From: Deltaproteobacteria bacterium
GTDB lineage: Bacteria > Bdellovibrionota > FAC87 > UBA2466
Assembly: GCA_016196825.1 (NCBI GenBank)
Contig: JACPWY010000019.1
Location: 22,644-86,643, forward strand
Direction: 5' to 3'
Length of the DNA stretch: 64,000 bases
Each line of letters begins with the position of its first letter. Positions within the stretch are counted from its first letter, which is position 1. Of the stretch, positions 28,201-59,527 are shown piece after piece. Both the position numbers and the translations under genes were made by a program. The notes under the pieces are model-generated. The model was not told the DNA's origin and searched no databases. It saw only the letters and a list, made by a program, of their open reading frames with translations.

Positions 28201-29865
28201 TTACGCCGCTGGTCCCGAGCTCCTTTTCAGTTCCTCGATCTCCTTTTTAAGCTCAATCATCTTGAGCTCGCGTCCCACGGTGAGCTTTTGAAATCGCTCG
28301 AGTTCGGCCAGACGAACAAGCTCTCTGGTTCGTTGTTCCGCGACCTCTTTCTCGGCGCGTTTTTGGGCGGTCACGTCACGAGCAGCGGCGAAAACCCCCA
28401 ATACGTTTCCACGGACATCCTTATAAACGGAGGCGTTGTAAAGAACGTCGGTCAGCTTTCCATATTTGTGTCGAATCGTGAGCGGGTAATCAGATACGAA
28501 GCTTTTTGCAAATACCTGTTTGTAGCCCTCCCGCGCCTTCCCAGGCTCCGTGAAATAGTTCGAGAAGTCGGAGCCGATCAACTCCTGTCGCGAGGTGCCC
28601 GTGACTCTCATGGTCGCTTCATTAACGTCCATGATTTTGCCGTCAGGACTGATGGTCACGAGTGGATCTAAAGAGGCCTCAATCAAGCTTCGCGAATATT
28701 GTGACGCTTGTTTCTGCGCGGTCACGTCACGAGCAGCGGCGAATACGCCTGACACATTCGCGGTTCCATCCTTATAAACGGAGGCGTTGTAAAGAACGTC
28801 GCTCAGCTTTCCGTCTCTGTGCCGAATCGTGAGCGGATAGTCAGCGACAAACCCTTTGGCAAAGACTTGTTGATAACCTTCTCGTGCTTTCTCAGGCTCC
28901 GTGAAATAGTTCGAGAAGTCGGACCCGATCAATTCTTCTTGGGAAACACCGGTAACCTTGGTTGTGGCCTCGTTAACGTCCGTGATCTTACCATCGGCGC
29001 TAATGGTCACGAGTGGATCTAAGGAAGCCTCGATCAAGCTGCGGGCGTATTGCGACGCTTGTTTCTGCGCGGTCACGTCGCGAGCGGCGGCAAACACGCC
29101 CAGCACATTTCCGCGAACGTTCTTATAAACAGACGCATTGTAAAGAACATCGGTCAGCTTTCCGTCCTTGTGCCGAATCGTGAGGGGATAGTCGGAGACA
29201 AACCCTTGAGCGAATACCTGCTTATATCCCTCTCGCGCTTTCTCAGGCTCCGTGAAATAGTTCGAGAAGTCGGACCCGATCAATTCTTCTCGGGAAATAC
29301 CCGTAACCTTGGTTGTGGCCTCGTTAACGTCTGTGATCTTACCATCGGCGCTAATGGTCACGAGTGGATCTAAGGACGCCTCGATCAAGCTTCGGGCATA
29401 TTGAGCAGCTTGCTGCGAAGCCTCTTTCTGGGCCGTCACATCGCGTGTAATGGACGAGACACCCACGACGTCGCCTATTTTATTCTTAATTGGCGACACC
29501 GTCAGGGAGACGTCGATAATCACGCCATCTTTTTTAATGCGCTTCGTATCGTAATGCTCAGTTTTCTCACCTCGTTTAATCTTTTCTATGACGGGCGCCA
29601 ATTCGTTGGAATGGTCTTTCGGCACCAGGGTGTAAATTGATTGGCCGATCATCTCATCTGTTGTGAATCCGTAAATTCGTTCGGCGCCTTCGTTCCAGCT
29701 GGTGATCGTGCCGTCCAGATCCTTGCCTACGATCCCATCGTCGGCGGACTCGACAAGTGATGCGAGCCGGTCGCGATCATCCTCGAAACTGCTCGCCATC
29801 GATCCTTTTTCCTTCGAATACTTTCTGTATTGTGATTTTATCGGCACTTGGGTTTGCTCATGCAT
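28201..29865 (-). CDS. PAS-domain-only signalling protein with three near-identical tandem PAS repeats and C-terminal coiled coil
   Basis: An N-terminal PAS block is followed by three copies of a ~106-aa PAS unit (TAQKQASQYARSLIEASLDPLVTISADGKITDVNEAT…VFAAARDV). The tail is ELVRLAELERFQKL… with no output domain. Confidence 0.7.
   Translation of the reverse strand: MHEQTQVPIKSQYRKYSKEKGSMASSFEDDRDRLASLVESADDGIVGKDLDGTITSWNEGAERIYGFTTDEMIGQSIYTLVPKDHSNELAPVIEKIKRGEKTEHYDTKRIKKDGVIIDVSLTVSPIKNKIGDVVGVSSITRDVTAQKEASQQAAQYARSLIEASLDPLVTISADGKITDVNEATTKVTGISREELIGSDFSNYFTEPEKAREGYKQVFAQGFVSDYPLTIRHKDGKLTDVLYNASVYKNVRGNVLGVFAAARDVTAQKQASQYARSLIEASLDPLVTISADGKITDVNEATTKVTGVSQEELIGSDFSNYFTEPEKAREGYQQVFAKGFVADYPLTIRHRDGKLSDVLYNASVYKDGTANVSGVFAAARDVTAQKQASQYSRSLIEASLDPLVTISPDGKIMDVNEATMRVTGTSRQELIGSDFSNYFTEPGKAREGYKQVFAKSFVSDYPLTIRHKYGKLTDVLYNASVYKDVRGNVLGVFAAARDVTAQKRAEKEVAEQRTRELVRLAELERFQKLTVGRELKMIELKKEIEELKRSSGPAA
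28440..29400. repeat. three tandem ~318-bp near-identical repeats (each encoding one PAS domain)
   Basis: DNA blocks beginning gtcacgtcacgagcagcggcgaa… recur at about 28365, 28715 and 29065 with few substitutions. Protein repeats differ at about 10% of positions. Confidence 0.75.
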
Positions 29866-31048: not shown

Positions 31049-31442
31049 TGAGCGTTTTCATGTTTTCTCGCCCCAAGTAGGGCCCCTGCTTCAACTCCAA
31101 AAACTCCGTGTCTTCCAGAAAGTGAAAGGCGTGGCCGCCCCTTAAGAGGAGAAGCGAATCGCCTGGTCCCATTTCGAATTCCTTTAAGAGTGTGTCCGAG
31201 GTGTCATAGACGGAGGCGATCACTTTCCCCCGCTTGACCATGATGAACTCCTGAAACTCTTCAACTACGGCGGCCTTCCCTCTGTGGCGGTGAGGCTCCA
31301 CGCATCCCCCTTTTTTGAAAACGCCGATGCCCAACTGAATGGGCTCGCTCAGAGGTGTGAGGAAGCTCGTCTTCTCAGGGGAGTGCGTGGCTCCAATGAA
31401 AATGGCGATCATCTGGTCGCCTGATGTCAGAATCTCAAGCAT
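30972..31442 (-). CDS. WbuC-like cupin-fold protein
   Basis: MLEILTSGDQMIAIFIGATHSPEKTSF…GGCVEPHRHRG has a cupin His cluster. The start is ambiguous (ATGs at 31463 and 31442), and the upstream ORF region is the other-frame shadow of the methyltransferase. Confidence 0.45.
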   Translation of the reverse strand: MLEILTSGDQMIAIFIGATHSPEKTSFLTPLSEPIQLGIGVFKKGGCVEPHRHRGKAAVVEEFQEFIMVKRGKVIASVYDTSDTLLKEFEMGPGDSLLLLRGGHAFHFLEDTEFLELKQGPYLGRENMKTLINPRPVVEKPAVHQAVLGVESTTRN

Positions 31443-34425: not shown

Positions 34426-34459
34426 GATGCATTCTAGAATACTGGGGAATAACCGAAAC

Positions 34460-34897
34460 TCAAGGTTTCAGGCGGGTGAAGCCCACGGTGATCTTCCCCC
34501 GGGCCACCACCCCGCATTGGGTTAGGTTTCGAATGGTGAGGTGGAGGATGAGCGCCCTTTCCCCCTCGATTCTCTGGGCCACAACGGTTTCAATTTCCAC
34601 CGAGTCTCCAGGATAGGACGGAGCGTGGTAACGCACATCAGCCCCGAGAAGGAGGGCTTGGCGGCCGGGAAAGACCCTCCCAATGAAATGGGACAAAAGG
34701 CCGTGGAGGATGCCACCGTGGATCACCGGTCCCTGAAAGCCAGCCTTTTGGGCAAATTCCTTGTCCGCATGAAGGGGGTTGGTGTCGCCAAAGAGCGCCA
34801 TGAACGATTGGTGGAGCTCCTCGCTGAGTGGGTATTCATGGCTGTGGCGATCGCCGAGATGCACCTGGTCAAAATGAAAATCGGGAGAGATCTCCAT
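34460..34897 (-). CDS. MaoC-like (R)-hydratase/dehydratase, hotdog fold
   Basis: FMALFGDTNPLHADKEFAQKAGFQGPVIHGGILHGLLS is the MaoC signature. Confidence 0.7.
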   Translation of the reverse strand: MEISPDFHFDQVHLGDRHSHEYPLSEELHQSFMALFGDTNPLHADKEFAQKAGFQGPVIHGGILHGLLSHFIGRVFPGRQALLLGADVRYHAPSYPGDSVEIETVVAQRIEGERALILHLTIRNLTQCGVVARGKITVGFTRLKP

Positions 34898-34950
34898 TTC
34901 GTTATTCTACCTGGTTGACGAGAGATCGGGAGTCTTGAGAGCTTCTGCAG

Positions 34951-36063
34951 ATGGCAGTGGCTTTGGTGACCGGCTCCTCCGGGCTTGTGGGGAGCGAGAC
35001 CGTAAAATTCTTGGTTTCTCAGGGGCTGGAGGTTCATGGGCTCGACAACGACATGCGTTCCTATTTTTTTGGAGGCGAAGCCTCGACGCAATGGAACGCT
35101 GAGTGGCTGACGCATCATCTGAAACCCTTTCATCACCACTCGCTCGATATTCGCAATGAGGCGGAGGTCAACGCGCTCTTTGGGCGATTTGGTGGCGCCA
35201 TCGATCTCATTGTGCATGCCGCTGCCCAGCCGAGCCATGACTGGGCGGCGCGCGAGCCGCTCACCGATTTTTCTGTCAACGCAGTGGGGACCTTGGTTTT
35301 GCTGGAGGCCGCCCGCCGCCATTGCCCAGCCGCCACGTTTATTTTTATCTCAACGAATAAGGTCTATGGTGACCGTCCCAATTCTTTGCCGATTCTCGAG
35401 GGGGAATCTCGGTATGAAGTGGATCCCAAACATCCTTTCGCGCAATCCGGCATCGATGAGACGATGCCAATCGATCAGTCGAAGCACAGTCTCTTCGGGG
35501 TGAGCAAGATGGCGGCCGATCTCCTGGTGCAGGAATATGGCCGGTATTTTGGAATGAAGACCGGCGTTTTTCGTGGGGGCTGTCTGGCGGGGCCGGCCCA
35601 TTCTGGCGTCGAGCTCCATGGCTTTTTGCCTTACCTTGTTCGATGCGCAGTAACCGGGATCCCCTATCGCATTTTCGGATATCGAGGGAAGCAGGTTCGC
35701 GACAATATCCATTCCGCTGATCTGGTGAGCGCGTTCTGGCATTTTTATCGGCAGCCGGGTTGCGCAGCCGTCTACAATATCGGTGGCTCGCGCCACAGCC
35801 ACTGTTCGATCCTGGAAGTGATTCAGCTGATTCAGGAGATCGCGGGGCGCGAAATTTCTTACACGATCGAGGATGGGGCGCGGACTGGTGATCACATTTG
35901 GTGGATCAGCGATGTGCGTAAGTTTCAGCATCACTACCCGGGTTGGTCCTACCGTTATGATTTGCGGGGCATCCTCACCGAAATGGTTGAGGCCGCGCGG
36001 GAAAGATATCTCACTCCCCAACACTTCCGACAGAGTTTGGAAACTCCCCCTCTCAACGCATGA
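34951..36063 (+). CDS. NAD-dependent epimerase/dehydratase family protein
   Basis: [21 protein letters not shown] is a Rossmann motif. Extended SDR, 370 aa. Confidence 0.75.
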
Positions 36064-37928
36064 ACCTGGATCATCTGAAGGCTCTTCGGAATGCGAAACC
36101 GGAAGAGTATTGGTCTGAGTACCGCCGCATGGTGGGGTTGGCGCTGTCATTCTCCGATCTTTTTGCGCTCAAGCGGGAAGCCGACCGGGCAAAGGCAATC
36201 GTGGGGAGGGCGGACTGGCTCGCGTTACGATTGGCTCTGATCGGCGGAGCCAACTTTCGACCATTTTGTGATGGCGTGGAGGCGGCCCTTTTGGGTGAAG
36301 GGATTCGGGCGGAGATTTGGGTGGGGGAGATCGATCGCCAGGTTTGGGAGGTGAATGATCCGCAGAGCGAACTCGTCGGGTTTCGCCCTGATGTGGTGGC
36401 TTTTTTCCCGTCGGAAAACCTCCTTCGTTGGGAGGATGGTCTTAGGGTCGCGGAGTCAGTCAGTCGGGGGCGTGTCAATCAGGTCGTGGAGGAAACACTG
36501 GGGCTCTGCCAGCGCATCTTTGATCATTTGGGGGCGGAGGTTTTGCTTTTGAACTATCCGCTTTTTGGAGACTGTGATCTCGGGCCTTATCGAAATCGGC
36601 AGCTCGGTAGCCTTTGGGCTTTTCGTAAGATGGTGAATTTGGAATTGGGCTTGCGGGCACCGGCCTTCGTGCGGGTGTGCGATCTGGAATTTCTCAGCGC
36701 ACGCCTTGGCACCGACTTGAGCCGTGATGCCCGGGGGTGGTTGGAAAGTCGACAACCCTTTTCGCAAGAATTGATGTTTGGGGCGGCAAAAGAGCTCGCT
36801 CACATGATCTCACGTCTTCGACAGACGCCGAAGAAGGTCTTGGTGCTCGATCTCGACAACACGCTTTGGGGCGGGATCCTGGGAGAGGAGGGTGTGGAGG
36901 GGGTTGAACTGGGGCACAATTCGGCGCGGGGGGAGGCCTTCAAAGGGTTTCAGAGCTACGTGAAGACGCTGGCTCAGCGAGGAATCCTGCTCGTTGTGTG
37001 CAGCAAGAACGACGATTCGCTGGCGCGCGAAGCATTTGTGAATCACCCGGAGATGGTGCTGAAAATGGATGACCTGGCCGGGTTCTCAGTCAATTGGGGA
37101 CCAAAATCTGAGGCGATCGCTTCTATCGCCCGGCAGCTGGCGTTGGGGCTGGAATCGTTCGTTTTTGTCGACGATAATCCTGCGGAGATCGCCGAAGTGA
37201 ACCTAGCTCTGCCCGAGGTAGCCACGGTGGTACTGGGGGACGACCCAGTGGATTTTGTTCGTCGGCTCCAGCGGGGACGTCACTTTGAACCCCATTCGCT
37301 ACTGGAAGAAGATTTTGAACGCGGGCAACTCTACCATCAGCAAAGGCAGCGGAAGGATCTGAAAACTTCTGTTTCGGATCTGAAATTCTATCTGCGCTCC
37401 CTTGAAATGGTGGCGGAGGTCCAAGTGGCCGGGGCTTGCGATCTGCCGCGCGTGGCCCAGCTTATCGGTAAGAGCAATCAATTCAACCTCACCGCAAAGC
37501 GGAGGACTTTGGGAGAGATACAGACGCTTCTTAAAAGCGAAGGCTCCGCGGGGGTGACAGTGCGATTGCGGGATCGTTTCGGGGATCAGGGGCTCATCGC
37601 GGCGGTGCTACTGGTGGAGAGCGGCCAGGGCGCGGCGATCGATACGTGGGTGATGAGTTGCCGGGTGTTGGGGCGTCAGGTGGAAGAGCTGACGGTCAAT
37701 GCGTTGGTCGCTTTGGCTGAGCGTCGCGGCTGGAGATGGATTCGAGCGAACTATGTGGAGACTGCGAAAAACCGCCTTGTGAAGGAGCTTCTGCCCAATA
37801 TGGGATTTGTTGAAGGCGAATTGGATGTGCTTGGGTTTACCCCGCGATCGACATTTATAGTTGGGTCAAGCGGAGAATTCGATCGATCTCCGCGAGTGAA
37901 TTCGCAAACAGAAGAAATGTCGCGCTGA
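36060..37928 (+). CDS. FkbH-like HAD-superfamily subfamily IIIC protein
   Basis: [27 protein letters not shown] is the HAD-IIIC/FkbH motif with catalytic DxDxT. There are about 250-aa N-terminal and C-terminal extensions. Start overlaps the epimerase stop (ATGA). Confidence 0.7.
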
Positions 37929-39033
37929 CAAAGAGGAACGTGAGAAGGACTGCCACCGCATGGACAGTCCGGCTCCGCTGGTAGGCTCTCAGTCTTTCTC
38001 TGGGCAGACTCTTGAGACCCAGGCCGTAGAGATAGTTGAAAGTGACCCCGGCGGCATGGGTCAATCCGAATAGGAAGAAGTTCCAGCCGAGGCCGTGCCA
38101 GAGTCCAATGAGAGAAAAGACGACAGTGATTCCTAGGATGATCGCCCAATGGGCGGATTGTGGCCCGAGCCGATGGATGAGGGTTTTAGTGAGCGGCAAA
38201 AACACGATCGTCTGCATGTATTCGGACAGTGTAATGTGTTGTCGATTCCAGAAATCTTTTATATTGCGGGCGGCAAAGGGCTGGTTGAAATTTTCCTTCA
38301 CCCGAATGCCAAGAAGGCCGGCCGTGCCGATGGCGATATCGCAGAAGCCGGAGAAGCTGAGAACGATCTTCAGATAGGTGGCAATGCACGCTACAGCGAG
38401 ATCGATCGGCGGATGAATGGCGTTTTCGGAATAGACCTTCTGGAAGGAAATTTGATCCATGAGAGGGGCTAAGACGAGAAATTTTGCGAGCCCCACCAGA
38501 ACTCGGATAACGGCCTGCGTGGCTAGGCCCTGGGTCTGGGGAAGTGGGGACTGGAAGGTGGTGAGTGGACTGATGGGACCGACATTGAGAGTCGGAGCGA
38601 ACAGCGCGAACGAAATGTAGGCGGCAAAGGAGGGAAAGGTGGCCGTTCCGTTTCGAACCTCGAGCGCTGCGAAGCTGAGACGAAAGGCTAGAAAGGAGAT
38701 TCCCACGAGAAAAAGTCCGAGCGACTTGACCGTTGCCAAAAGGAAAAGTGGGAAAAGGAAAGCCAACCAAAAGGATCTGTCTTGGCGGTGCCCGAATCTC
38801 TTGAGAAGCCCGTAGTGAATCACGACAATGATGATGGAGAGAATGGTGAGATGATCGGCCTCGGTGGGTGAGATCTTCTGTGAGGCGCAGACGATGCGGA
38901 CAATGAAGCGGATCGAAATGAGGTTGAGCGCGGCAAAGAGTGATTCACCGGTAGGTGAGTGAAGCCGCTGCAACGTGCGGCCGGCTCCGACATAGAACAG
39001 CCAACCCACAAAAATGCGGGTCCACGAATACAC
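37855..39033 (-). CDS. MBOAT family membrane-bound O-acyltransferase (AlgI/DltB-like)
   Basis: Polytopic membrane protein. FWNRQHITLSEYMQT and GLWHGLGWNFFLFGLTHAAG resemble the conserved FWRRWH…/WHG histidine region of AlgI/DltB. The 3' end overlaps the FkbH gene convergently by 74 bp. Confidence 0.55.
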   Translation of the reverse strand: MYSWTRIFVGWLFYVGAGRTLQRLHSPTGESLFAALNLISIRFIVRIVCASQKISPTEADHLTILSIIIVVIHYGLLKRFGHRQDRSFWLAFLFPLFLLATVKSLGLFLVGISFLAFRLSFAALEVRNGTATFPSFAAYISFALFAPTLNVGPISPLTTFQSPLPQTQGLATQAVIRVLVGLAKFLVLAPLMDQISFQKVYSENAIHPPIDLAVACIATYLKIVLSFSGFCDIAIGTAGLLGIRVKENFNQPFAARNIKDFWNRQHITLSEYMQTIVFLPLTKTLIHRLGPQSAHWAIILGITVVFSLIGLWHGLGWNFFLFGLTHAAGVTFNYLYGLGLKSLPRERLRAYQRSRTVHAVAVLLTFLFVSATFLLFANSLAEIDRILRLTQL

Positions 39034-39141
39034 TAAAACCCTCCATAGGCGAGGGTGGGGTCAAAGACCTCTCGCGGGATGAGCGCAATGAGCCGGAGGC
39101 TGAGCAGGGTGAGCATCAGGAGCGTTCCCCAGAGGGCGAGC

Positions 39142-40374
39142 TCAGAGAGTCGAGCTTGGTGCTGTTCCATAGATCTCCGCCAGAGTGGGGGTGACAGCTC
39201 GGGTGAAGAGTCTAGCCCCGTTGATGTTGAAATGATTGACGTCGTAATAGAGGCCCCGAACCTCGTCTTCCGAAAGACTGGAGAAAAGATCGGCCGGCAC
39301 AACGCCTGCCACAAAGAGATTGGGAGCGGGAAAGCGCCTCCTCCAGTCTTGGCGCAACACGATTGTGTGATCCGCGCGATCGAGAAACCGAGGCATGTCC
39401 AAGAGCACGACCTTTGTCCCGTGGGTGAGCGCGAGGTCCACCGCCTTGGCGAAAAAATAGGCGTCGTAAGGGGGAAGCGGTCGGTTGAGCGAGGAGAAAT
39501 TGTTTTGTGTGGCGGGGGAAAGAATAGTCCCTGTCGCACCGGTCGAAATATTTTTTTCTTGGAAGGACGGGTCTTCAGGGAAAGTTCTTGCGCTAAGAAG
39601 AGCGCCCGTTGAGGAGATGGTGGGATCGGATGGGTGAGAGTGTCTAGAACCTATCTCATAAATAGTTTCTACTCGGCTGGTCAAAAAGCCCAGGCTCTTC
39701 GTCCTCCGCGCTCGGCTGCTCGACGTGCCCAGAGGGCACGCCTCCGCGGCCTCGCTTGTGCGTCCTTGATCCAGGGCTTTTTGACTCAGCCTCGCTACGA
39801 AACTATTTATGAGATAGGTTCTATTTCTCAGAAGGCCTAAGACATGCCGTGGAGCCCCTAGATAGGAGTAGGCCCAGAGTCTGAATTTCGAGGGAAGATC
39901 GAGGCCGTTGAGCTCCCCGATGTGTTCTCCCGCGATCCACCAGTAGAGCGAGTAGTAGTGGGGTTCCTTTCGGCCCGCATCGCCCTCGGGTGGATCGATG
40001 ACGACCGTGTGCACTCGGCGTCGTTGGAGGAGCTCTTTCAAAAGAAGATAGATCAAATCTTCCCCTCGCCAGTTTGCGCCAAGATTCAAGGTGACCAATT
40101 TTTTTCCAGGCACCAGGGTCTCGGCCAAGAGATCGGTGTTCACTGCGTTCCAGATGTAAGACGATCCCAAAACAAGGAGATCGATGTCGCCGGTTTCTTC
40201 GAATATTGAATGAGCCATGAACTGGTAGTGGCCGCCGTGGCTCGGTGCGGAATGAAACTTTTGCTCCGGTCGATAGCCCGGCAGGCTCGGAAGAGCCCAC
40301 GGCAGAACTAACAGGAATGCGAGCAGAGCGCAGAACAGCCAGCCCTGCATGCGAGTGGAAAAGGCTGGCTCCAT
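39142..40374 (-). CDS. DltD/AlgJ-like (SGNH-type) extracytoplasmic protein carrying an in-frame MITE-like insertion
   Basis: N-terminal signal/TM (WLFCALLAFLLVLPWALP). C-terminal DAYFFAKAVDLALTHGTKVVLLDMP…LYYDVNHFNINGARLF resembles DltD/AlgJ acyltransferase-partner proteins. Residues about 178-245 are encoded by repeat copy B (39645-39823) with no stop. Confidence 0.45.
   Translation of the reverse strand: MEPAFSTRMQGWLFCALLAFLLVLPWALPSLPGYRPEQKFHSAPSHGGHYQFMAHSIFEETGDIDLLVLGSSYIWNAVNTDLLAETLVPGKKLVTLNLGANWRGEDLIYLLLKELLQRRRVHTVVIDPPEGDAGRKEPHYYSLYWWIAGEHIGELNGLDLPSKFRLWAYSYLGAPRHVLGLLRNRTYLINSFVARLSQKALDQGRTSEAAEACPLGTSSSRARRTKSLGFLTSRVETIYEIGSRHSHPSDPTISSTGALLSARTFPEDPSFQEKNISTGATGTILSPATQNNFSSLNRPLPPYDAYFFAKAVDLALTHGTKVVLLDMPRFLDRADHTIVLRQDWRRRFPAPNLFVAGVVPADLFSSLSEDEVRGLYYDVNHFNINGARLFTRAVTPTLAEIYGTAPSSTL
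39645..39823. repeat. MITE-like palindromic repeat, copy B (full)
   Basis: Perfect 24-bp terminal inverted repeats (agaacctatctcataaatagtttc / gaaactatttatgagataggttct). Inner arms are tactcggctggtcaaaaagcccagg / ccagggctttttgactcagcctcg. Conserved core cttcgtcctccgcgctcggctgctcgacgtgcccagagggcacgcctccgcggcctcgcttgtgcgtcct. Confidence 0.7.
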
Positions 40375-40454
40375 GGAGTGAAGTGTACCCTACTGAGGAG
40401 CTCATGGTTAAGGACACCGCAATGTACTGGCTTGTGATCGAAGCCACCGTCACT

Positions 40455-40534
40455 TCAGTCGGCGCAGTTTGAATACTTTTTGGTATACCGATTTGTATTA
40501 AAGAATAGATTTTGGTATACCGAAAAGTATTCAA
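40455..40534 (+). promoter_or_regulatory. AT-rich putative promoter/operator with duplicated palindromic site TTGGTATACCGA
   Basis: gaatactttttGGTATACCGAtttgtattaaagaatagattttGGTATACCGAaaagtattc carries two copies of GGTATACC (self-complementary), flanked by inverted gaatactttt / aaaagtattc. It lies immediately upstream of the AAA_14 gene. Confidence 0.4.
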
Positions 40535-41677
40535 GTGGGGATTCCTTTGAAACGCTATCTGACAACTTGGTTGAAAACGGCACTGAAGGAAAAGATGGTT
40601 TTTGTGGGTGGGCCGCGCCAGGTCGGAAAGACGACTTTAGCATTTCAACTCCTGGGGAACGCGGATCCTGAGCAATCGGCCTATTTCAATTGGGATATTC
40701 ACGGGACAAAGACGCGGATTCTCAACCATGAATTGCCGGTGGATCAGAAACTCTTAGTGTTTGATGAGATTCACAAGTACCGACAATGGCGGAATTTTCT
40801 GAAAGGGCTTTTCGATCAATACAAGTCAAAAAAGGAGATTCTCGTTACCGGGTCTGCGCGACTGGATGTTTTTCGAAGGGGGGGCGACGCTCTCACTGGT
40901 CGGTACCACTATTATCGATTTCATCCCCTGTCGCTCTGTGAGATCAGTCAGCAGCCAAAATCGTCCGATCTTGATCATTTGCTTAAGTTTGGGGGATTTC
41001 CAGAGCCATTTCTCAAGGGAGAAGAGCGCGCTTGGAAGGTGTGGCAGAATGAACGCGTTACTAGAGTCGTTCAAGAGGACCTGATTTCCTTGGAGAGGGT
41101 GAACGAGCTCAGTCAACTCAGTCTCCTTGCGGAAATATTGCCTATCAGAGTCGGAAGTCTCCTCTCACTCAACAACCTTCGAACTGAGCTCAAGGTCTCT
41201 TACGAGGCTGTCGCAAGGTGGATAGAGATCTTCGATAATCTCTATTACTCCTTTCGCATTTCCCCCTTTGGGTTTGCCCCCCTGCGGACGGCCAAGAAGG
41301 AAAAGAAGCTTTACCTCTGGGACTGGTCTTCTGTTCCCAATGAGTCGGCAAGAGTGGAAAATTTTGTGGCCAGCCATCTGTTGAAATATTGTCATGCGAG
41401 ATATGATCACTTTGGAGAACGGTTGGAGCTACTCTTCTTACGCTCACCGATTGGCAAAGAGATCGATTTCCTCGTGTGCGATCGAAAAAAGCCGGTCTTC
41501 GCCGTGGAATGTAAGTCAGGGGATCGGGAGGTGAGCTCGTCGATTAAATACTTTGCCCCACGAATGCCCATCCCGCGCTTTTTTCAGGTCCATCTCGGGA
41601 AAAAGCATGTCGAGGTGAAGGATTATCGCACTGAGATTATCCCCATGACCCAGTTCGGGAAATGGCTGGGTGTCTAG
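40535..41677 (+). CDS. AAA_14/DUF4143 family ATP-binding protein
   Basis: Walker A GGPRQVGKTTLAFQLL and Walker B LLVFDEIHKYRQWRNFLKGLFD. 380 aa. Its stop abuts the ACP gene's GTG start. Confidence 0.65.
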   Translation: MGIPLKRYLTTWLKTALKEKMVFVGGPRQVGKTTLAFQLLGNADPEQSAYFNWDIHGTKTRILNHELPVDQKLLVFDEIHKYRQWRNFLKGLFDQYKSKKEILVTGSARLDVFRRGGDALTGRYHYYRFHPLSLCEISQQPKSSDLDHLLKFGGFPEPFLKGEERAWKVWQNERVTRVVQEDLISLERVNELSQLSLLAEILPIRVGSLLSLNNLRTELKVSYEAVARWIEIFDNLYYSFRISPFGFAPLRTAKKEKKLYLWDWSSVPNESARVENFVASHLLKYCHARYDHFGERLELLFLRSPIGKEIDFLVCDRKKPVFAVECKSGDREVSSSIKYFAPRMPIPRFFQVHLGKKHVEVKDYRTEIIPMTQFGKWLGV

Positions 41678-41929
41678 GTGGATGCAGGCACCGTGCTGTT
41701 GAGGCTCCAGACCATTTTTGACGACCTGCTTCTTCAGCCGGTCACGCTCACGCCAGCGCTCAGCGCCGATGAGGTCGAGGAATGGGATTCCCTGTTACAG
41801 GTGTCGATCGTGGCCGCGGCCGAAGAGAGATTTGGCATTCAGTTTCGCACGGGTGAAGTGGAGGCGACGCGGAATGTGGGTGATCTGGTCGCCTTGATCC
41901 AACGGCATCTTTCCCGTCAGGCAGGTTGA
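41678..41929 (+). CDS. acyl/peptidyl carrier protein (phosphopantetheine-binding)
   Basis: GTG start. …ADEVEEWDSLLQVSIVAAAEERFGIQF…VGDLVALIQ has the DSL Ser motif and four-helix ACP pattern. Confidence 0.65.
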   Translation: MDAGTVLLRLQTIFDDLLLQPVTLTPALSADEVEEWDSLLQVSIVAAAEERFGIQFRTGEVEATRNVGDLVALIQRHLSRQAG

Positions 41930-43383
41930 AGCGTGCCGGTCGGAATGGGGAGTTCTTCCTGGTGTTCGGACCTGAGTCCGAGCTCCGTGATCACGGCCGA
42001 TTCTTGGTAGGATTCGTAGTCGGTGTTGATGTCCCAGAGGTTGTGCTTCGCCCCTTGGTTTATCTTTTCAGCGGCGAGGAGCCCCATGAGGAGGCTGTGA
42101 TCTTGGTTATTGTATTTGAAGGAGCCATACCGACCGATGGGTGTGAGATTGTTGATCCCATTGATCCACTTTGCGATGTGGCTGACCAAGGTCTTGTATC
42201 CTCGTCGATAAACTGGGTAGCAGCGATTGAGCCGCTCGACATGGCCGCGCAGGATATTGGCCTTGCCGATGAGCCCCGTCTTGCGGAGCTCCGCCGAGGC
42301 CGTTGCGGCGAGTGAGTCATGCGAGTCGCTCCAGAGGGTGTCGTCTCTATTGCACCAATATTCGAGGGCCAAGATCGAATTCTCGGATCCTCGGTGGAGC
42401 TCGGGGACCCAGTTGCGAAAATTGGTGATACGACCGGTCTGGAGTTCGGGAGAGTGGACGTAGATCCAGTTGTCGGGGAAGAGGTTTTTCGAGTCGATCT
42501 CGAGATAAACTAGGATCGTGTTGCGAAATGAGAGGCCATCGACGGCGGCGCGGACGGAGTCGGGAACACCGGAAAGGGATTTCACCAAAAGTGTCAGGGG
42601 CATCGTGGAGACGACGTGATCATAAAGACGTTTTTCTCCGGTCGATAGCTCGACACCGGTGACATGGCCGTGGTCAGACATCAGTCTTTGAATCGGTGAG
42701 TTGAGGTAGACCTTGTTGCCCTTTCGCTCTATGAAGTCGGCCATCCGAGTGTAGAGTGCGCCGGAGCCCTCCTTGGGATAAGCGAAGCGATCGACGAGCG
42801 TTTTATGTTGGGTGGTTCCGATCTGAAAAGCGTTTTTGATCGCCTCAAGCAACGAAAGCTTCTTGATTCGTTGAGCCGCGAAATCGGCATCGAGATCTTC
42901 ACAGGAGATGCCCCAGAGCTTTTCGCTGTAGGTCTTGAAAAAAACCTCGAAGAGTCGCCTCCCAAAGCGCGAGGTGACCCATTGTTCAAAGCTCAAATCG
43001 TGCGACGCGGCCCTGGTCCGGAATTTTTCCGTGGCGTAGCTCGCGAGACAGCGCGTCGATTCCCATCCGCCGAGATTCGAAAGCGCGTCGAAAGGCTTGA
43101 GCGGGTAGTGGAAGAATCGCTTTCGGTAATAGATTCGCGTGAGGCGGTCGATCATCGCGTAGTCGCGGCCGATCACCTCGAGCCAGAGGCGGTTGATCCG
43201 GGCGTCGCAGGAGAAGAATCGGTGGGGGCCGAGATCCACGCGTTGTCCCCAGAGGTCGAACGAGCGTCCGAGGCCGCCGACAACGGGGGCGGCCTCAAAC
43301 ACATCGACCGAGTGGCCGGCCTTTGAGAGCTCGTAGGCAGCCGTGATACCAGCCGCGCCGGCTCCGATGACCGCAGTTCTCAT
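41917..43383 (-). CDS. FAD/NAD(P)-binding oxidoreductase (amine-oxidase / UDP-galactopyranose-mutase-like fold)
   Basis: MRTAVIGAGAAGITAAYELSKAGHSVDVFEAAPVVGG is a dinucleotide-binding GxGxxG motif plus the oxidase-family GG motif. Confidence 0.6.
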   Translation of the reverse strand: MRTAVIGAGAAGITAAYELSKAGHSVDVFEAAPVVGGLGRSFDLWGQRVDLGPHRFFSCDARINRLWLEVIGRDYAMIDRLTRIYYRKRFFHYPLKPFDALSNLGGWESTRCLASYATEKFRTRAASHDLSFEQWVTSRFGRRLFEVFFKTYSEKLWGISCEDLDADFAAQRIKKLSLLEAIKNAFQIGTTQHKTLVDRFAYPKEGSGALYTRMADFIERKGNKVYLNSPIQRLMSDHGHVTGVELSTGEKRLYDHVVSTMPLTLLVKSLSGVPDSVRAAVDGLSFRNTILVYLEIDSKNLFPDNWIYVHSPELQTGRITNFRNWVPELHRGSENSILALEYWCNRDDTLWSDSHDSLAATASAELRKTGLIGKANILRGHVERLNRCYPVYRRGYKTLVSHIAKWINGINNLTPIGRYGSFKYNNQDHSLLMGLLAAEKINQGAKHNLWDINTDYESYQESAVITELGLRSEHQEELPIPTGTLQPA

Positions 43384-43467
43384 TCAGACCCCGCAGAGCG
43401 AAACAAAATTTGTTGCGAAAAAATGGCCAGGATTCGCGGGGGACCCCGCAGCTCCAGAAAATGATTT

Positions 43468-43532
43468 TAGAACGTATTTCATAAATAGTTTCTACTCGGC
43501 TGGTCAAAAAGCCCAGGCTCTTCGTCCTCGCG
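43468..43532. repeat. MITE-like repeat, copy C (left half only, solo arm)
   Basis: tagaacgtatttcataaatagtttctactcggctggtcaaaaagcccaggctcttcgtcctcgcg matches the left 65 bp of copy B. No right arm is present. Confidence 0.6.
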
Positions 43533-43574
43533 CCTGGCCTGGGATTTCGGTGGGTTTCATGCTAAGACCAACCG

Positions 43575-45003: not shown

Positions 45004-47748
45004 TTACGGCCAGTAACGCATGATCGCGAAGTCGTAGCTGGCCGCCTGCGCATTACCCACCGCCACAATCTTGCCGTCGGACTGCAGCGCCAACCCAAAG
45101 ATGCTGTTGTTGTTGGCGGCGCCGCCGAGGCCTGTGTAATCCGTCTCGACCTGGCCGGTGCTGTTGAAGCTCGCGTCGAGGGCGCCGGCTGAGGTGAGCC
45201 GCATCATCGCGAAGTCTTTCTCCGTGTTTGTCGAGTAGCCGCCGATGATGATGTTGCCCGAGCTATCGATCACAAGCGCCGTGCCATCCGCCGCACCCGC
45301 GCCAATCGCGGTGGTGTAGGTGCCGGCAGTGCCGAAGGTGGCATCGACGGCACCCACAGAGGTCAAGCGCGTCACCGTCATCTGGTTCGAACCCGTCGCG
45401 CTCACGCCGCCGAGGACGATGTTACTGCTCGAGTCGATGGCCATTGCCTTCACGATGTCGGTGCCGGCAGTGACATCAACCGTGGTGTAGCCCGAGGTGC
45501 CGAAGTCCGTGTCGATCGCACCGACCGAGCTCACCTGGGCCACCGCGAACTGATAGGTGCCGGAGAGAGCCGTGCCGGCCATCACGATTTTGCCGCTGGA
45601 AAGAATCGAGAGGGCATAGCAATCATTCTGTGAATTTGCGATCGGGCTGAACACCGCTCTACCCGTGGTGTTGAAGGTCGTGTCGGCCGTTCCATCCGTG
45701 CCGTAGCGAGCGATGGCGAAACGCTTCTTGCCCGCGAGAGAGATGCTGTAACCGACGGCAACCGCTTTGCCATTGCTGTCGAGCGCGAGGCCGCGGAGCA
45801 CATCGTCTTGGCCGTTGAACTGCGTTATGGCGATGCCGCTCGTGCCGTAGGCGGTGTCGATCGCACCGGCCGAAGTCAACCGTACCACCGAGAAGTTGAG
45901 GTCACCCGAGGTGGCCGCCGAACCGCCGACTAGAACTTTGCCATCGGCCTGGATGACTACCGCGTAGGCAACATCGTTTCCACCCGCCGAAACATCGATC
46001 GAAACCTTACCGCCCGTACCGAATGAGGCGTCGAGCGCGCCGGCGGTGCTGTAGCGGGCGACCGCGAAATCCGTGTCGGAGCCGTTGTAGCTCGAACCGG
46101 CGACCACAATCTTGCCATCGCTCTGCAGGGCCACAGCGTATCCGTAGGCATCCGCAGAACCTATCGACGAGGCCACTTGGCCCGTGGTGTTGAAGGTCGT
46201 ATCGAGCGAGCCGGGGTTGCCGATGCCTGTGCCGGTCATCGCGCGGGTCGCGCTCGAGGTCGAGGCATCCGGAAGAGTGTAGTTGACCGTTAGCGTATCG
46301 CTCGCGGCACCGAGGGCGGTCGGGCTGAAGCGGACCACGATTGTGCAGGTGGCGAGGCTTCCGATTGAATTGCCACAGGTGCCGCCGGTGCCGGGGTACG
46401 CACCGCCCTTATATGTGTACGGCGCCGAGAGGGCCGCCCCACTCACGACCGTGGCCGAGCCGTGCTGCGAATTGGTCACCGTGAAGGACTTATCCGTATT
46501 TGTGGTGTTGATGTACTTCGAACCGAAGCTGTAGGTCGCGCCATCTGAAATCGAAAGTGAGGCATAGCCGAGGCCCGTGCCAGCCACATCGCGGGAGGCG
46601 GTCTGCGTGGCGACGCCATCATTATAGGTGAGGTTGATGGTGCTGCTCGTGGCGCCCGTAGCCGTTGGGGAGTATGTCACGATGAGCGTGCAGGTCGCGC
46701 TGCCGGCAAGCGAGGCGCCACAGGTGCCGCCAGTGCCGGGATATGAACCACCCTTGTAACCGTACGGAGCGGCGAGGGCCGGAGTTGTGTTCGAGAACGA
46801 AGTTGCCGTTGCGCTACCCGCGTTTGTGACCGTGAACGTCTTGTCGGCCGTGAGTGTCTCGTAGGTGTCGGGGTAGGTGTAGGTGGCGCCGTCCGAAACC
46901 GAGAGAGAGGCCGGGGTTTGGCCCGTGCCCTGCATCGCGCGCGTGGCCGATTGTGTGCTTGTGCCATCATTGTAAGTGAGGCGGAGCGTGTCCGAGCTCA
47001 GCACCGCGGCCGACGGGGTGTAGCGCACAACCACCGTGCAGGTGCCACTGGCCGCGAGGGTCGCGCCGCAGGTGCCCCCGGTGCCGGGGTAGGCGCCGCC
47101 CTTGAAGGTGAACGGGGCCGCCATCGCGGGGGTGCCAGCCGCCATCGCCGTCGCGCCCACCGTGCCCGTGTTAGTCACGGTGAAACTCTTGTCCGAGGTG
47201 TTGCCGATCACAATCGTTCCATAGTCGTAGGTGGCGCCATTCGAAATCGAGAGGACCGCGCCGTCGGAGGCCGCACCAGTCAGCTGCGTGATGTCCGAGG
47301 TGAGGACGGTCTTGCTGTCGACCCCGTTATAGTAGGTCAAGAAGAGCTCGCCTGTCGCGGCGCCACTTGAGGTCGGGCTGAAAGCAAGAACCACGGTGCA
47401 GGTCTCACCGACCTGAATCACAAGGCCGCAAGTTCCGCCGACGCCGGGGTAGTAACCGCCGAGAAAGGTGAACGGGGCAGTGAGCGACTTGGGTTGCGGG
47501 GCACTCGCGAGGAGGCCACCGTTGTTGGAAAGGGTCAGGTTGGCCGTGACCGTTCCGCCCACGCTTGCCGTGCCGAAATCGATCGGTCCGTTTGTCGCCA
47601 CGAGATTGGCCGGACCAGAGATGAGCTTATCGGAATCTTTTTTCTGCTTGCGGCAAGAAACTGCGGACGCAGCTAAGATAAGCGCGAACCCAACGTATTG
47701 GGCGAAGCGCAGAGAGGCTTTAATTTGTGAGCAGCTACCAACGTACAT
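45004..47748 (-). CDS. large secreted/lipoprotein with N-terminal Gly/Thr-rich Ig-like repeats and C-terminal delta-60-type repeat region
   Basis: Signal/lipobox-like N-terminus (ALILAASAVSC). At least five repeats share FTVTN-G…PY.YKGG.YPGTGGTCG…C…V.(R/T)(Y/F).P(T/S). The C-terminal half has repeated TDFAVARY…G.LD..FG..G motifs, which are delta-60/beta-propeller-like. Confidence 0.6.
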   Translation of the reverse strand: MYVGSCSQIKASLRFAQYVGFALILAASAVSCRKQKKDSDKLISGPANLVATNGPIDFGTASVGGTVTANLTLSNNGGLLASAPQPKSLTAPFTFLGGYYPGVGGTCGLVIQVGETCTVVLAFSPTSSGAATGELFLTYYNGVDSKTVLTSDITQLTGAASDGAVLSISNGATYDYGTIVIGNTSDKSFTVTNTGTVGATAMAAGTPAMAAPFTFKGGAYPGTGGTCGATLAASGTCTVVVRYTPSAAVLSSDTLRLTYNDGTSTQSATRAMQGTGQTPASLSVSDGATYTYPDTYETLTADKTFTVTNAGSATATSFSNTTPALAAPYGYKGGSYPGTGGTCGASLAGSATCTLIVTYSPTATGATSSTINLTYNDGVATQTASRDVAGTGLGYASLSISDGATYSFGSKYINTTNTDKSFTVTNSQHGSATVVSGAALSAPYTYKGGAYPGTGGTCGNSIGSLATCTIVVRFSPTALGAASDTLTVNYTLPDASTSSATRAMTGTGIGNPGSLDTTFNTTGQVASSIGSADAYGYAVALQSDGKIVVAGSSYNGSDTDFAVARYSTAGALDASFGTGGKVSIDVSAGGNDVAYAVVIQADGKVLVGGSAATSGDLNFSVVRLTSAGAIDTAYGTSGIAITQFNGQDDVLRGLALDSNGKAVAVGYSISLAGKKRFAIARYGTDGTADTTFNTTGRAVFSPIANSQNDCYALSILSSGKIVMAGTALSGTYQFAVAQVSSVGAIDTDFGTSGYTTVDVTAGTDIVKAMAIDSSSNIVLGGVSATGSNQMTVTRLTSVGAVDATFGTAGTYTTAIGAGAADGTALVIDSSGNIIIGGYSTNTEKDFAMMRLTSAGALDASFNSTGQVETDYTGLGGAANNNSIFGLALQSDGKIVAVGNAQAASYDFAIMRYWP

Positions 47749-56685: not shown

Positions 56686-56696
56686 TTTTTGGTTTA

Positions 56697-56874
56697 AGAG
56701 CCTATCCTAAAACCCTTTCTACTCGGAACGGTCAAAATGTCCTGGCCCTTCGTCCTCCGCGGTCGGTGTCCTCGACGTGCCCAGGGGGCACGTCTGCGGG
56801 ACCTCCCTTGTGCGTCCTCGGTCCAGGACATTTTGCCTCGCTCCTCCCGACGAAAGGGTTTTAGGATAGGCTCT
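56697..56874. repeat. MITE-like palindromic repeat, copy D (full)
   Basis: Perfect 23-bp termini agagcctatcctaaaaccctttc / gaaagggttttaggataggctct. Core cttcgtcctccgcggtcggtgtcctcgacgtgcccagggggcacgtctgcgggacctcccttgtgcgtcctcg. Confidence 0.7.
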
Positions 56875-58527
56875 AAGCGTGACCCGTTTGATCAAATTCA
56901 ACGCTCGGCGAGCCATTTTCACCGAACGCCTATTGAGAAATGCCTTCATCGCTGCGTTCTCGGCCTCGAGCCCTTGGAGGCGGCTGCGCAAGTGGGCCTC
57001 CACAGCGGGCTGCCTGGGGAAGGCGAGCGGTGGAAAGACCTGACCAAAAAGCTTCCGAAGCTCTGCGCGGTGGTGGTTTCGAGATCCGCCGCCGACGCGC
57101 TCCTGAAACTGGGCCTCTTGCTCCAGGGCCTCCTCGAAACGGGGTGCAACTCCGATGGAGTGGCAAAGAACGGTGTAAAGGTCATGCAAAGTGCGAAATG
57201 GCGCCGACGCACTCAATGTCTCAAAATCTCGAATGCAGGCAAAGACGTTCCGAAACACGAACCAGTGCACGGGAACGGGGCCAGCATTGTCCCATTCGAG
57301 ATCAAAATTGGTGAATCCCTCTCCTTCGACAATGGCGTTGAGGAAGACGGCATCCAGCGCCTCAGCTCTGAGTGCTTCGTTCGACTCTCGATACCGGGCG
57401 GCGGCCCAACGCAGATAGTGCGTGAAAAGGAATTGGAAGCGATCCCATTCCTCGAAATAAGCGGCGCGTGCGAGCTCAAAACGAAAAGGGGTCCCCGGAA
57501 CGAGCGGCGATTCGGTTTTGCCCTTGGTAACGGTGAGCCCCGAGGGTTTTTCCTGGAACCGGGTCTCGGAGTTCCCAAAGTGCCAGGCCAAAAGGTCGCG
57601 AGGCGGCCGGACCGTTTCCAGAATCGATGAATCCGCCTTCGTTGAGGCCATCACCAAAAAGGAGTTGGACATCTCGGCAAGCCAACCTTCACGAGCCGCG
57701 GTCAGCGTGGCCAAAGAATCGGGAAAGGAGCGCACCCGCGGGGTCGTATAGTTTTCATAAGGCCTGTGACACGCCAGCGAGGCCGCGGCCTCGGGGGCCC
57801 GCTCCAGCATCCTTTCCGTGAGCACACAGCTCGGGATCTTATAGTCGGGAAAGGGGTAGAGGAATTCGGCGCATTCAAAACCCGAACTTTGAAGAAGCGA
57901 GGAAAGCCGTTTACGGGAGAAGGTTTTGGCGCCGGGGCGGGAGGAATAGCCCACCATTCCGTCATAAAGCGTTCCATTGTGGTCTTCAGCCGCGCCGCCC
58001 CAATATTTCAGGCCGAGGGCATTTTCGATCGCGAGGATCAATACTCCATCGGGTTTCAAAAACCGTTTCACCTGTTCGAGAAAGATCGGGTGCGCCAACT
58101 CGGTGGGTGTGATGAACCGTTCGGCGTATTCGAGGACGCCGATCACAATGGCCACATCATACTGTCGCCGTGGAGTGCAGGTCGCAAACTCCGCCACCTC
58201 GCCGGTCCAGTTTGAAAGACCCTGCAGACGCAATTCGATTCCACGGTGACGATCTTCCGTCCCCTCGATCGTGTGAAGGGAGCGGGCGTTTTCCGCGAGG
58301 TATCGAGAGACAGCGCCCATGCCAGCGCCGATCTCCACAACATCTAGCCCCTGAAAGTGAAACGGGCGGACAAGATTCGAGCGTTCGCGGCAAAGGTGGT
58401 AGCGGACCGACCACTCCCCATACTGGGTCGCGCCCGGGTTTTCCCCCGAACCTAGATTCGGCGAGTCGGCCAGAATGGCCCTTACGCGCGCCTCTTCAGC
58501 TGCCCCGTCGGTGTACTCGATCGCCAT
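56719..58527 (-). CDS. SAM-dependent methyltransferase domain protein with large C-terminal extension; 3' end encoded by repeat copy D
   Basis: LDVVEIGAGMGAVSRYLAENARSLHTIEG is SAM motif I. 602 aa. The last about 50 codons (…CPLGTSRTPTAEDEGPGHFDRSE*) lie inside the MITE-like element, so the native C-terminus is uncertain. Confidence 0.55.
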   Translation of the reverse strand: MAIEYTDGAAEEARVRAILADSPNLGSGENPGATQYGEWSVRYHLCRERSNLVRPFHFQGLDVVEIGAGMGAVSRYLAENARSLHTIEGTEDRHRGIELRLQGLSNWTGEVAEFATCTPRRQYDVAIVIGVLEYAERFITPTELAHPIFLEQVKRFLKPDGVLILAIENALGLKYWGGAAEDHNGTLYDGMVGYSSRPGAKTFSRKRLSSLLQSSGFECAEFLYPFPDYKIPSCVLTERMLERAPEAAASLACHRPYENYTTPRVRSFPDSLATLTAAREGWLAEMSNSFLVMASTKADSSILETVRPPRDLLAWHFGNSETRFQEKPSGLTVTKGKTESPLVPGTPFRFELARAAYFEEWDRFQFLFTHYLRWAAARYRESNEALRAEALDAVFLNAIVEGEGFTNFDLEWDNAGPVPVHWFVFRNVFACIRDFETLSASAPFRTLHDLYTVLCHSIGVAPRFEEALEQEAQFQERVGGGSRNHHRAELRKLFGQVFPPLAFPRQPAVEAHLRSRLQGLEAENAAMKAFLNRRSVKMARRALNLIKRVTLRAYPKTLSSGGARQNVLDRGRTREVPQTCPLGTSRTPTAEDEGPGHFDRSE

Positions 58528-58567: not shown

Positions 58568-58750
58568 CTAATCCCTCAGCTCGATTGAATTTGGCCACTG
58601 GGCGGGTGCTTTTGACCGACCACTTCGTCCTCCGCGTTCGGCTCCTCGACGTGTCCAGGGGGCACGCCTCCGGGGCCTCTCTTGTGCGTCCTCGTGGTCG
58701 GCCAAAATCCCCTCGCCGATTGGACCAAATTCAATCGAGCAGAGGGATTA
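58568..58750. repeat. MITE-like palindromic repeat, copy E (full, divergent arms)
   Basis: Termini ctaatccctcagctcgattgaatttgg / ccaaattcaatcgagcagagggattag (1 mismatch). Core cttcgtcctccgcgttcggctcctcgacgtgtccagggggcacgcctccggggcctctcttgtgcgtcctcg. It contains the stop codon of the downstream gene. Confidence 0.7.
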
Positions 58751-59527
58751 GTTTTGGTGTTCCAGCTGGGTCAGCGGGAAAAGCTGCACAGCCATACGGT
58801 AGACCTCGGTCGGCTCATTTTCGACCTCGGCCTGATCCATCAGCTCGTCCTGAAATCGTCGGATCATCTTTTTCGCACTGGCCAGCGTCTTCGGGTTCAT
58901 CGGGAAGGTGATCCAGGTGAAATCACGTTGCGGAACGGGGATCGTCCCAAGCTTTTCCTGGGCCAAAGTGAGGGTGTCGCCGTGTGACTTCTTGATCCAT
59001 TCGTTGGGTGTGTCTTCAGTTGTGGTCAGAGAGGGTTTCGAGCGACGCCAGCCTCCGCTTTCCAGCTGCTCTAAATAGCCGCTTCGGACGAGTCGCTCCA
59101 TCGCGTCGGCCGCCTTCTTACGCGGAATGCCCAGCCGCTGAGCGATCCAATCTGGGTCGCCCTGAAACGCATTCATCGTCGCTAAATTCAAGATCGCGAA
59201 GTTCTCCCACTCAGTGAGGAGAAAATACTTATCTGCCTCCATTCGGAGGTAGCGATCGGAATTGGGGCGCCGGTTCGAGCGGGCCGCCTTTTTCTCGATG
59301 AGATCCAGCAGCGCGCCCCGTTCGGGTGGGGGGAGTGCCATGCTGTCGGTGAGCTTGCGTGCCAGCTTAGCCGAGACCCGACGTTTACCGAGGAGAACCA
59401 GACTGAGGGTTCCGGCGCTGATGCCAAGCCGCCGGGCGTAACCTCTCACCGACATCCTTGGGTTGCGGCTTCTGAGGGCCGTGAGTTGGGACTGAAGGCT
59501 ACTTCGAATGGCCAGTTGTTCTTCCAT
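58748..59527 (-). CDS. HTH-domain protein resembling the TIGR02147 family
   Basis: SVRGYARRLGISAGTLSLVLLGKRRVS is an HTH. The overall 259-aa architecture resembles what I recall of TIGR02147 proteins. Unverified. Confidence 0.45.
   Translation of the reverse strand: MEEQLAIRSSLQSQLTALRSRNPRMSVRGYARRLGISAGTLSLVLLGKRRVSAKLARKLTDSMALPPPERGALLDLIEKKAARSNRRPNSDRYLRMEADKYFLLTEWENFAILNLATMNAFQGDPDWIAQRLGIPRKKAADAMERLVRSGYLEQLESGGWRRSKPSLTTTEDTPNEWIKKSHGDTLTLAQEKLGTIPVPQRDFTWITFPMNPKTLASAKKMIRRFQDELMDQAEVENEPTEVYRMAVQLFPLTQLEHQN

Follow-up and report, generated by a model that had tools for sequence, protein, structure and literature searches.

Can a hairpin-forming repeat settle inside a gene, be translated as part of its protein and leave the enzyme around it intact? 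The question is raised by a 64,000-nt stretch of DNA from an uncultured bacterium (Deltaproteobacteria bacterium, GenBank assembly GCA_016196825.1, contig JACPWY010000019.1, positions 22,644 to 86,643 of the forward strand), which was analysed as a whole and is called the window below. A palindromic repeat, copy B of a small family, lies here wholly within an open reading frame (ORF) of 410 amino acids (aa) on the minus strand. We consider it likely that copy B is a non-autonomous, TA-targeted hairpin repeat inserted in the gene of an SGNH acyltransferase, that it is read through, and that it is tolerated or neutral. The gene and the parts of copy B are as follows.

39142..40374, minus strand: host gene, encoding a predicted 410-aa membrane-anchored SGNH-fold protein, a DltD/PatB-like partner of an MBOAT protein; residues 185-243 are encoded by the element.
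39645..39823: copy B with the TA on either side counted in; without them the element spans 39647-39821 (175 nt), and the net insertion is 177 nt, or 59 codons.
39645..39669: left terminal inverted repeat of copy B, 25 nt, starting with TA, 100% complementary to 39799-39823.
39799..39823: right terminal inverted repeat of copy B, 25 nt, with TA at its end.
39697..39766: 70-nt core, found in copies B, D, E and F (79-91% identical between them) and including the apical hairpin GTGCCC-AGA-GGGCAC.

With the TA at either end counted, copy B is a palindromic repeat of 179 nt. Its ends form a perfect inverted repeat of 25 nt, TAGAACCTATCTCATAAATAGTTTC ... GAAACTATTTATGAGATAGGTTCTA, with 100% complementarity around an interior of 129 nt, and a second, inner inverted pair measures 18 nt. 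With up to two mismatches allowed, the window contains the terminal 24-mer three times, compared with 0 occurrences in 100 shuffles. The RNA of these 179 nt is predicted to form a single long hairpin (-106 kcal/mol, z -12; another estimate gives -97 kcal/mol), and the fold z-scores of copies B, D and E range from -7 to -12. The repeat and its insertion are more than chance. The perfect terminal repeats suggest that the insertion of copy B was a recent event.

The arithmetic of the reading frame defines what was inserted. Excision of 177 nt, that is, of the element and one TA, leaves an intact ORF of 351 aa; excision of 179 nt produces a frameshift and an early stop. Because only the 177-nt removal restores the ORF, the event is best described as an insertion with duplication of a TA target, adding 59 codons net (residues 185-243). 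The target TA spans codons 184 and 185 (AAT and AGA), and its T is the third base of codon 184. Copy B has one stop-free frame of three on each strand; with a net insertion of 177 nt and the target T at codon position 3, it is this frame that is read, and the ORF therefore remains unbroken. An earlier interpretation made from the letters of the window and a list of its ORFs, hereafter the sequence-only reading, had placed the element in frame and entirely inside the 410-aa ORF, which the excision bears out. Its estimate of about 67 added residues (roughly 178-245) was slightly too wide; the 179 nt of copy B count both TA.

The open frame can also be weighed against chance. The reconstructed gene contains 23 TA dinucleotides, and in five of them (22%) the T occupies codon position 3, the phase that gives read-through whichever way the element is oriented. 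By itself, the open frame is not beyond chance and is not evidence of selection. A surplus of open frames in the repeat family, as if designed for translation, was considered and set aside as weak: two, two and three of the six frames are open in copies B, D and E, numbers that are reached in ~13%, 26% and 5% of shuffles and are thus only mildly above them, and the copies are not independent of one another.

The homologues of the host protein lack the inserted segment. The sole informative homologue from a word-indexed search is P0002, a protein of 356 aa that is 30% identical to the query and collinear with it over 98% of the query. Similarity to P0002 ends exactly at ...LGAPRHVLGLLRN (...LLRN), the residue before the element, and restarts 36 residues past the element. 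A profile search of 1.84 billion representative proteins recovered 209 homologues at E<1e-30; among the best 150 of the 209 no length exceeds 384 aa, and the query, at 410 aa, is the longest. The inserted segment is absent from 50 of 50 aligned homologues, all of them collinear single proteins, and no case of two independent genes at the position of the host gene was found among the orthologues. The loop that extends from the nearly invariant R183 to G257 comprises 73 aa in the query and 11-29 aa (median 14) in the 50 homologues. Subtracting the 59 inserted residues leaves 14, so that the loop without the insert matches the family median. Several homologues have 10-15 additional residues of their own in the same loop. 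The order of an SGNH gene followed by an MBOAT gene is likewise kept in the contigs that carry P0002; it is seen in L001/L002, where the MBOAT protein is 48% identical, and in L023. On this evidence, the sequences flanking copy B belong to one gene, which encodes an SGNH acyltransferase of the kind found as partner of MBOAT proteins; this agrees with the sequence-only reading, which had taken both flanks for parts of a single protein.

A compensating frameshift, in which a 179-nt insert would be offset by a later insertion or deletion, was also tried as an explanation and rejected. A tblastn comparison of P0002 with all frames of the locus shows no similarity off the frame of the gene, and the duplicated TA explains the arithmetic.

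Profiles of known families say little about the host protein. The query matches no Pfam family at E<=0.1. When 51 members of the family are compared with Pfam, ALGX (PF16822) matches two of them (best E 0.088), SGNH family PF19040 matches five (best E 5.5e-4) and DltD (PF04914) matches 0 of 51; a sequence search of the PDB with the family profile came back empty. The SGNH fold is recognised solely through structure comparison. The catalytic residues are strongly conserved: S72 of block I (G70-S71-S72) is kept in 50 of the 51 sequences, H381 of block V is invariant (51/51), and D378, which completes the DxxH block (D378..H381), is D or N in 43/51. With the Ser block on the N-terminal side of the insert and the DxxH block on its C-terminal side, the SGNH domain is interrupted by the insert between blocks III and V. 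The prediction for the host protein is an SGNH partner of an MBOAT protein, anchored in the membrane, DltD/PatB-like in kind and outside the Pfam families DltD and AlgX. The sequence-only reading had proposed a signal anchor followed by a C-terminal SGNH-like region, in a protein of DltD/AlgJ type. The anchor holds (a helix at residues 8-30), but the domain lies on both sides of the insert; the type holds with respect to the SGNH fold and the MBOAT partner, but not with respect to membership in either Pfam family.

The predicted structure shows how the insert may be accommodated. AlphaFold, supplied with the 51-sequence alignment, returned a model with a mean predicted local distance difference test score (pLDDT) of 86.7 and a predicted template modelling score (pTM) of 0.84. 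The model has an N-terminal transmembrane helix at residues 8-30. The insert follows directly after the conserved helix that ends in ...LGAPRHVLGLLRN, within the most length-variable loop of the family, and is modelled as a weak helix (191-210) and then a disordered coil. Residues 212-246 are the sole segment with pLDDT <50. The 10-residue blocks of 181-250 average 36-71, while every folded-domain block on both sides reaches >=85. Catalytic Ser72 and His381 are intact, and the SGNH core on either side of the insert is predicted with high confidence. The model fits an insert that forms a presumably exposed surface loop tolerant of changes in length. The 410-aa protein, if made, would probably fold with a disordered excursion at this point.

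A repeat inside a gene could also arise through the mis-joining of contigs at repeated sequence, and the per-run assemblies of short reads do break within the element. Logan contigs from three runs (SRR12113416, SRR12113417 and SRR12113388) match the window at 100% from 30303 to 39672, running from the 3' part of the gene into the first 28 nt of the element, and in this way contain the left junction in each of the three runs. A contig of SRR12113416 matches 39737-43508 at 100% and runs from the apex of the element through its right arm into the 5' part of the gene, and thus contains the right junction. The 64 nt of the interior between them (39673-39736) are uncovered in the per-run assemblies. 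An artefact is opposed by the recovery of both junctions in independent contigs, by the agreement of two metagenome-assembled genomes (MAGs), the second of which carries the identical insertion in contig JACOTR010000081.1, and by the gene itself, whose halves stand in the correct order, strand and frame with a residual loop of median length. No contig with the empty-site allele was found in the assemblies of the three sequencing runs. Both junctions between gene and element are confirmed as genuine, and we regard a mis-join as scarcely credible.

BLAST, repeat finding and an nhmmer profile recovered five copies of the repeat in the window (A-E). A sister assembly contains a sixth, copy F, on a different contig (L012 = JACOTR010000028.1, 11313-11497). 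The further copies of the window, and the gene that one of them has altered, are as follows.

~30007-30163: copy A, with D-type arms, the left outer end missing and the core replaced by another centre; in a divergent intergenic region.
43468-43537: copy C, the left ~67 nt only, 95.5% identical to copy B; in a divergent intergenic region.
56695-56876: copy D, full length, with TAA flanks; 11 codons ahead of the original stop of a methyltransferase gene.
56719..58527, minus strand: methyltransferase ORF, 602 aa, with its last ~51 residues and its stop codon from copy D.
58569-58750: copy E, full length, with different arms and TA flanks; in the stop-codon TA of a DUF4423 gene (58748..59527, minus strand).

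Read from the sequence, removal of copy D together with one TTA/TA gives a methyltransferase ORF that ends 11 codons later and has a length like that of its homologues. The closest of these (51-56% identity, 559-578 aa) end 7-8 residues beyond the edge of copy D. Removal of copy E restores a TAG stop in place of the present TAA, which takes its final A from the element; the DUF4423/helix-turn-helix protein is unchanged. For the purpose of a comparison with the palindromic elements of Rickettsia, two of the six copies touch coding sequence, and an internal in-frame fusion is found in copy B only.

The elements measure 175-185 nt, have a G+C content of 55-61%, and code for short, basic translations with no capacity for a transposase. 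The outer arms of copies D, E and F are near-perfect, and copy F is without a clear TA on one side. This combination of terminal inverted repeats, TA duplication, small size, hairpin, several copies and no transposase supports a description of the repeat as similar to a MITE (miniature inverted-repeat transposable element), the class to which the sequence-only reading had likened it. The relationship among the copies is less usual. The arms (~55 nt) are 48-59% identical between copies, or 71-74% for the pair B/D, and each element's own arms are still complementary. The termini GA(A/G)CCTATC are common to B, C, D and A, and in E and F the same core is flanked by unrelated arms. Possible origins of this mosaic of core and arms are subfamilies that descend from separate master copies, a core module nesting in palindromes, or a constraint that acts on the core. 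The arms of E and F were also compared with arms of the B/D type in flipped orientation; flipped identities were no better, and this explanation was dropped.

A core that is 79-91% identical between arms that vary so widely (the B/D pair excepted), with each element's own arms complementary, suggests another explanation: the repeat might in the first place serve as a structured RNA or as a DNA module that binds protein, set by the 70-nt core, and not be a selfish transposon; the copy in the gene would be a regulatory placement in the polysaccharide cluster. The forms considered were a regulatory hairpin, a small RNA, and a recombination or binding site. The distribution of the repeat lends this some weight, as all five window copies fall within 29 kb (~30000-58750) of one polysaccharide cluster of glycosyltransferases, epimerases, methyltransferases and MBOAT, and ~19 kb of extra sequence beyond the ends of the window contains no further copies. 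The repeat, however, matches no Rfam family, either at gathering thresholds on the whole window or at E<=1 on the element. The element contains no promoter-like site and no sense-strand terminator; terminator-like sites within it are antisense to the gene only, and their count is that of the shuffled background. The copies occupy coding and non-coding positions alike and some are truncated, the TA flanks and the exact 177-nt excision fit transposition, and six copies are too few for a test of covariation. We regard a primarily functional module as improbable.

Searches for the repeat in other organisms gave no relatives. A scan with a 20-mer of the core returned seven matches in 185,579 GTDB representative genomes and two in JGI metagenomes, all of them chance matches of 22-39 nt that lack the remainder of the element, and blastn of the repeat against plasmids returned nothing. 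The stop-free translations of copies B, D and E, compared with 5.8 billion proteins, recovered only the two proteins of the window.

What has the insertion done to the gene? In the explanation that we favour, a non-autonomous repeat read through in a tolerant place, the 175-nt hairpin-forming element inserted at the TA across codons 184/185 and duplicated it. The ribosome would read on through the element, adding 59 residues to a variable loop of the SGNH enzyme, and the insert would be a tolerated or neutral passenger, not an adaptation. The hairpin of about -100 kcal/mol in the mRNA probably lowers expression, either because RNase III cuts it, as happens with Correia elements, or because it slows the ribosome. 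Transcription would be expected to continue into the downstream microprotein and MBOAT genes, and termination at the hairpin is not expected, since the sense strand has no T-run after it.

The same insertion, equally real, could instead have inactivated the gene, the open frame being coincidental, an alternative that the sequence-only reading had itself named. No functional full-length protein would then be made, whether because the mRNA is cut at the long hairpin, the protein misfolds or its contact with the MBOAT protein and the microprotein is blocked. Read-through by chance at 5/23 TA sites is in keeping with such a coincidence. Perfect terminal repeats of 25 nt leave too little time for a pseudogene to decay; since they suggest a recent event, the intactness of the remaining gene says little. 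The hairpin of -97 to -106 kcal/mol has a counterpart in Neisseria, where mRNAs that contain Correia elements are cut by RNase III at the terminal repeats (PMC10969869), and copy D changed the C-terminus of its own host gene regardless of frame. Against inactivation, no other loop of the family varies in length as much as the one that contains the insert; the insert is predicted to be disordered with the surrounding fold intact, and leaves the catalytic residues in place; the assemblies of three runs carry the same allele, with no empty-site contig. The placement in the most variable loop suggests tolerance, though it is not decisive. Taken together, an insertion that is tolerated or neutral and still translated seems to us to stand somewhat above an even chance. 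A functionally inactivating insertion is possible but doubtful, and an adaptive one is very improbable.

Several points weigh against the favoured explanation as a whole. The production and activity of the 410-aa protein are predictions from its gene, and a random insertion of the element at a TA would keep the ORF about 22% of the time. A near-identical empty site was not found among the homologues; because the closest insert-free homologue is only 38% identical, the exact pre-insertion sequence is reconstructed, not observed. The conserved core and variable arms invert what MITEs usually show, ends that are conserved around a middle that varies, and are atypical for MITEs mobilised by a transposase. 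No transposase or insertion sequence (IS) with ends matching those of the repeat (TAGAACCTATC) was found in the window, its 19 kb of flanks, GTDB representative genomes, JGI metagenomes or plasmids, where the scans of collections used the core motif and would miss an IS that lacks it. Finally, the repeat family was found in no other organism in these searches, and its mobility is deduced from six copies.

A more novel reading combines two claims: that the repeats are no conventional MITEs dependent on a transposase but a hairpin element defined by its structure, with a conserved 70-nt core and arms that need to be self-complementary only, and that its tolerated, translated insertion yields a working acyltransferase with a 59-aa surface loop. 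We think this combination unlikely. If true, a structure-defined element would imply an unusual mechanism of mobilisation or copying, or a core module nesting into palindromes, and a working 59-aa loop would be a protein innovation by repeat insertion outside Rickettsia.

The host gene is the first of a three-gene operon that sits in the polysaccharide-biosynthesis cluster and continues, in this order, with a gene for a 45-aa microprotein and the gene for an MBOAT protein. The two downstream genes are as follows.

39034..39170, minus strand: DltX-like microprotein of 45 aa, a single helix ending in ...LAYGGF; between the SGNH and MBOAT genes.
37855..39033, minus strand: MBOAT gene, 392 aa (PF03062, E 3e-12); downstream partner in the operon.

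A similar small ORF is present at three unrelated metagenome loci (L001 7037-7177, L024 1307-1498 and L023 1116-1337), where the microproteins end in ...LVYRGF, ...VIYRGF and ...LVYQGF, respectively. These ends recall the FxYxxF acyl-shuttle motif of the DltX microprotein. The MBOAT protein of the window has the C-terminus ...RILRLTQL, with no motif of the FxYxxF type. In MBOAT/SGNH pathways other than Dlt, a separate DltX-like protein is absent and the motif is found at the C-terminal end of the MBOAT instead (PMC12148441). The locus may be a Dlt-like three-part acylation module within a Gram-negative polysaccharide cluster.

Other repeats and differences were noted in the window at a distance from the element. 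In the G+C-rich region 45161-47480, direct repeats in register form two sets, with periods ~170 and ~350 nt, at 60-84% identity. They resemble the tandemly repeated domains of a large protein that is secreted or on the surface (the annotation of L016 gives a 914-aa product with faint Ig-like matches). Three direct repeats of 300 nt with a spacing of 351 nt at 28359-29360 belong to ORF 28201..29865 (minus strand), for which Pfam reports four tandem PAS domains. The sister contig JACOTR010000028.1 shares 100% identical blocks with positions 1-6600 of the window, without the segments 3775-3815 and 5108-5245, and diverges past position ~6593 into different genes, which may be strain variation or a chimeric join between assemblies.

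The locus offers a tidy case of how an enzyme can gain a peptide segment from a short palindromic repeat while its gene stays unbroken: the codon arithmetic is exact, the loop without the insert equals the family median, the fold around it is predicted with confidence, and both junctions are confirmed independently. The value is chiefly one of annotation, since the general phenomenon is already known: segments of the 410-aa and 602-aa proteins derive from the repeat, and the repeat is a new family in an uncultured lineage. Two features could be of wider interest: the architecture of conserved core and variable arms, if confirmed on whole genomes, and the DltX-like microprotein in a non-Dlt MBOAT-SGNH operon.

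The host protein resembles the SGNH partners DltD, PatB and AlgJ/AlgX in its SGNH fold, N-terminal anchor, catalytic Ser and His, and adjacent MBOAT gene. A trait that is particularly Dlt-like is the DltX-like microprotein ending in Y-x-G-F between the SGNH and MBOAT genes (PMC12148441). In contrast to DltD and AlgX, the host protein has neither Pfam membership nor a sequence match in the PDB.

Among known repeats, Correia elements (CREE or nemis, from Neisseria) are like the repeat described here in their length of ~100-200 nt, their terminal repeats of ~25 nt and their long RNA hairpins. Insertion of Correia elements duplicates a TA target. The resemblance is one in kind: host and sequence context are unrelated to Neisseria, the present repeat contains no promoter-like site, and its arms vary around a conserved core.

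The Rickettsia palindromic elements (RPEs), which the sequence-only reading had invoked as a precedent for an in-frame insertion, are described as such in reviews (PMC10969869, PMC3184786). According to these accounts of Ogata et al. 2000, RPEs are palindromes of ~100-180 nt that lie in frame within genes, as copy B does, and the added peptide was judged compatible with the fold of the host protein. The present repeat has an unrelated host and no known sequence relationship to RPEs, and differs from them in its perfect terminal inverted repeats and TA duplication. It also shows no evidence of a family-wide bias towards ORFs, its stop-free frames being only mildly enriched.

Fusions between MITE ORFs and genomic ORFs in the same frame are "not unusual" in general, and RPEs produce them at high frequency in Rickettsia (PMC10969869). 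Repeats extend the 3' ends of genes or sit inside them in pneumococcus, Bordetella and cyanobacteria (PMC3184786), and the QMITEs of Coxiella include in-frame copies in the middle of ORFs, new C-termini and supplied stop codons (PMC5896051). QMITE1 and QMITE2 of Coxiella and the pneumococcal BOX, RUP and SPRITE repeats therefore parallel the three outcomes seen in copies B, D and E: insertion in frame in mid-ORF, a new C-terminal tail and the supply of a stop codon (PMC5896051, PMC3184786). These families comprise tens to >100 copies per genome and have been analysed across strains, whereas six copies are known here; the direct repeats of QMITEs measure 2-3 or 7-11 nt, compared with TA here. 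As portrayed in a review (PMC3184786), the Chunjie MITE of Geobacter uraniireducens Rf4 (Chen et al. 2008) also forms a hairpin of ~180-235 nt with a stability of -98 to -130 kcal/mol, lies within an operon without breaking it and overlaps protein genes with some of its copies, in a host that is deltaproteobacterial in the old sense. The same account gives Chunjie as A+T-rich, with terminal repeats of 21 bp and direct repeats of 9 bp, whereas the present repeat has 55-61% G+C and a TA duplication (2-3 bp). In-frame insertion by repeats of this sort is already documented, and the present case is a new repeat family in a new, uncultured host, likened to RPEs and Correia elements by its behaviour.

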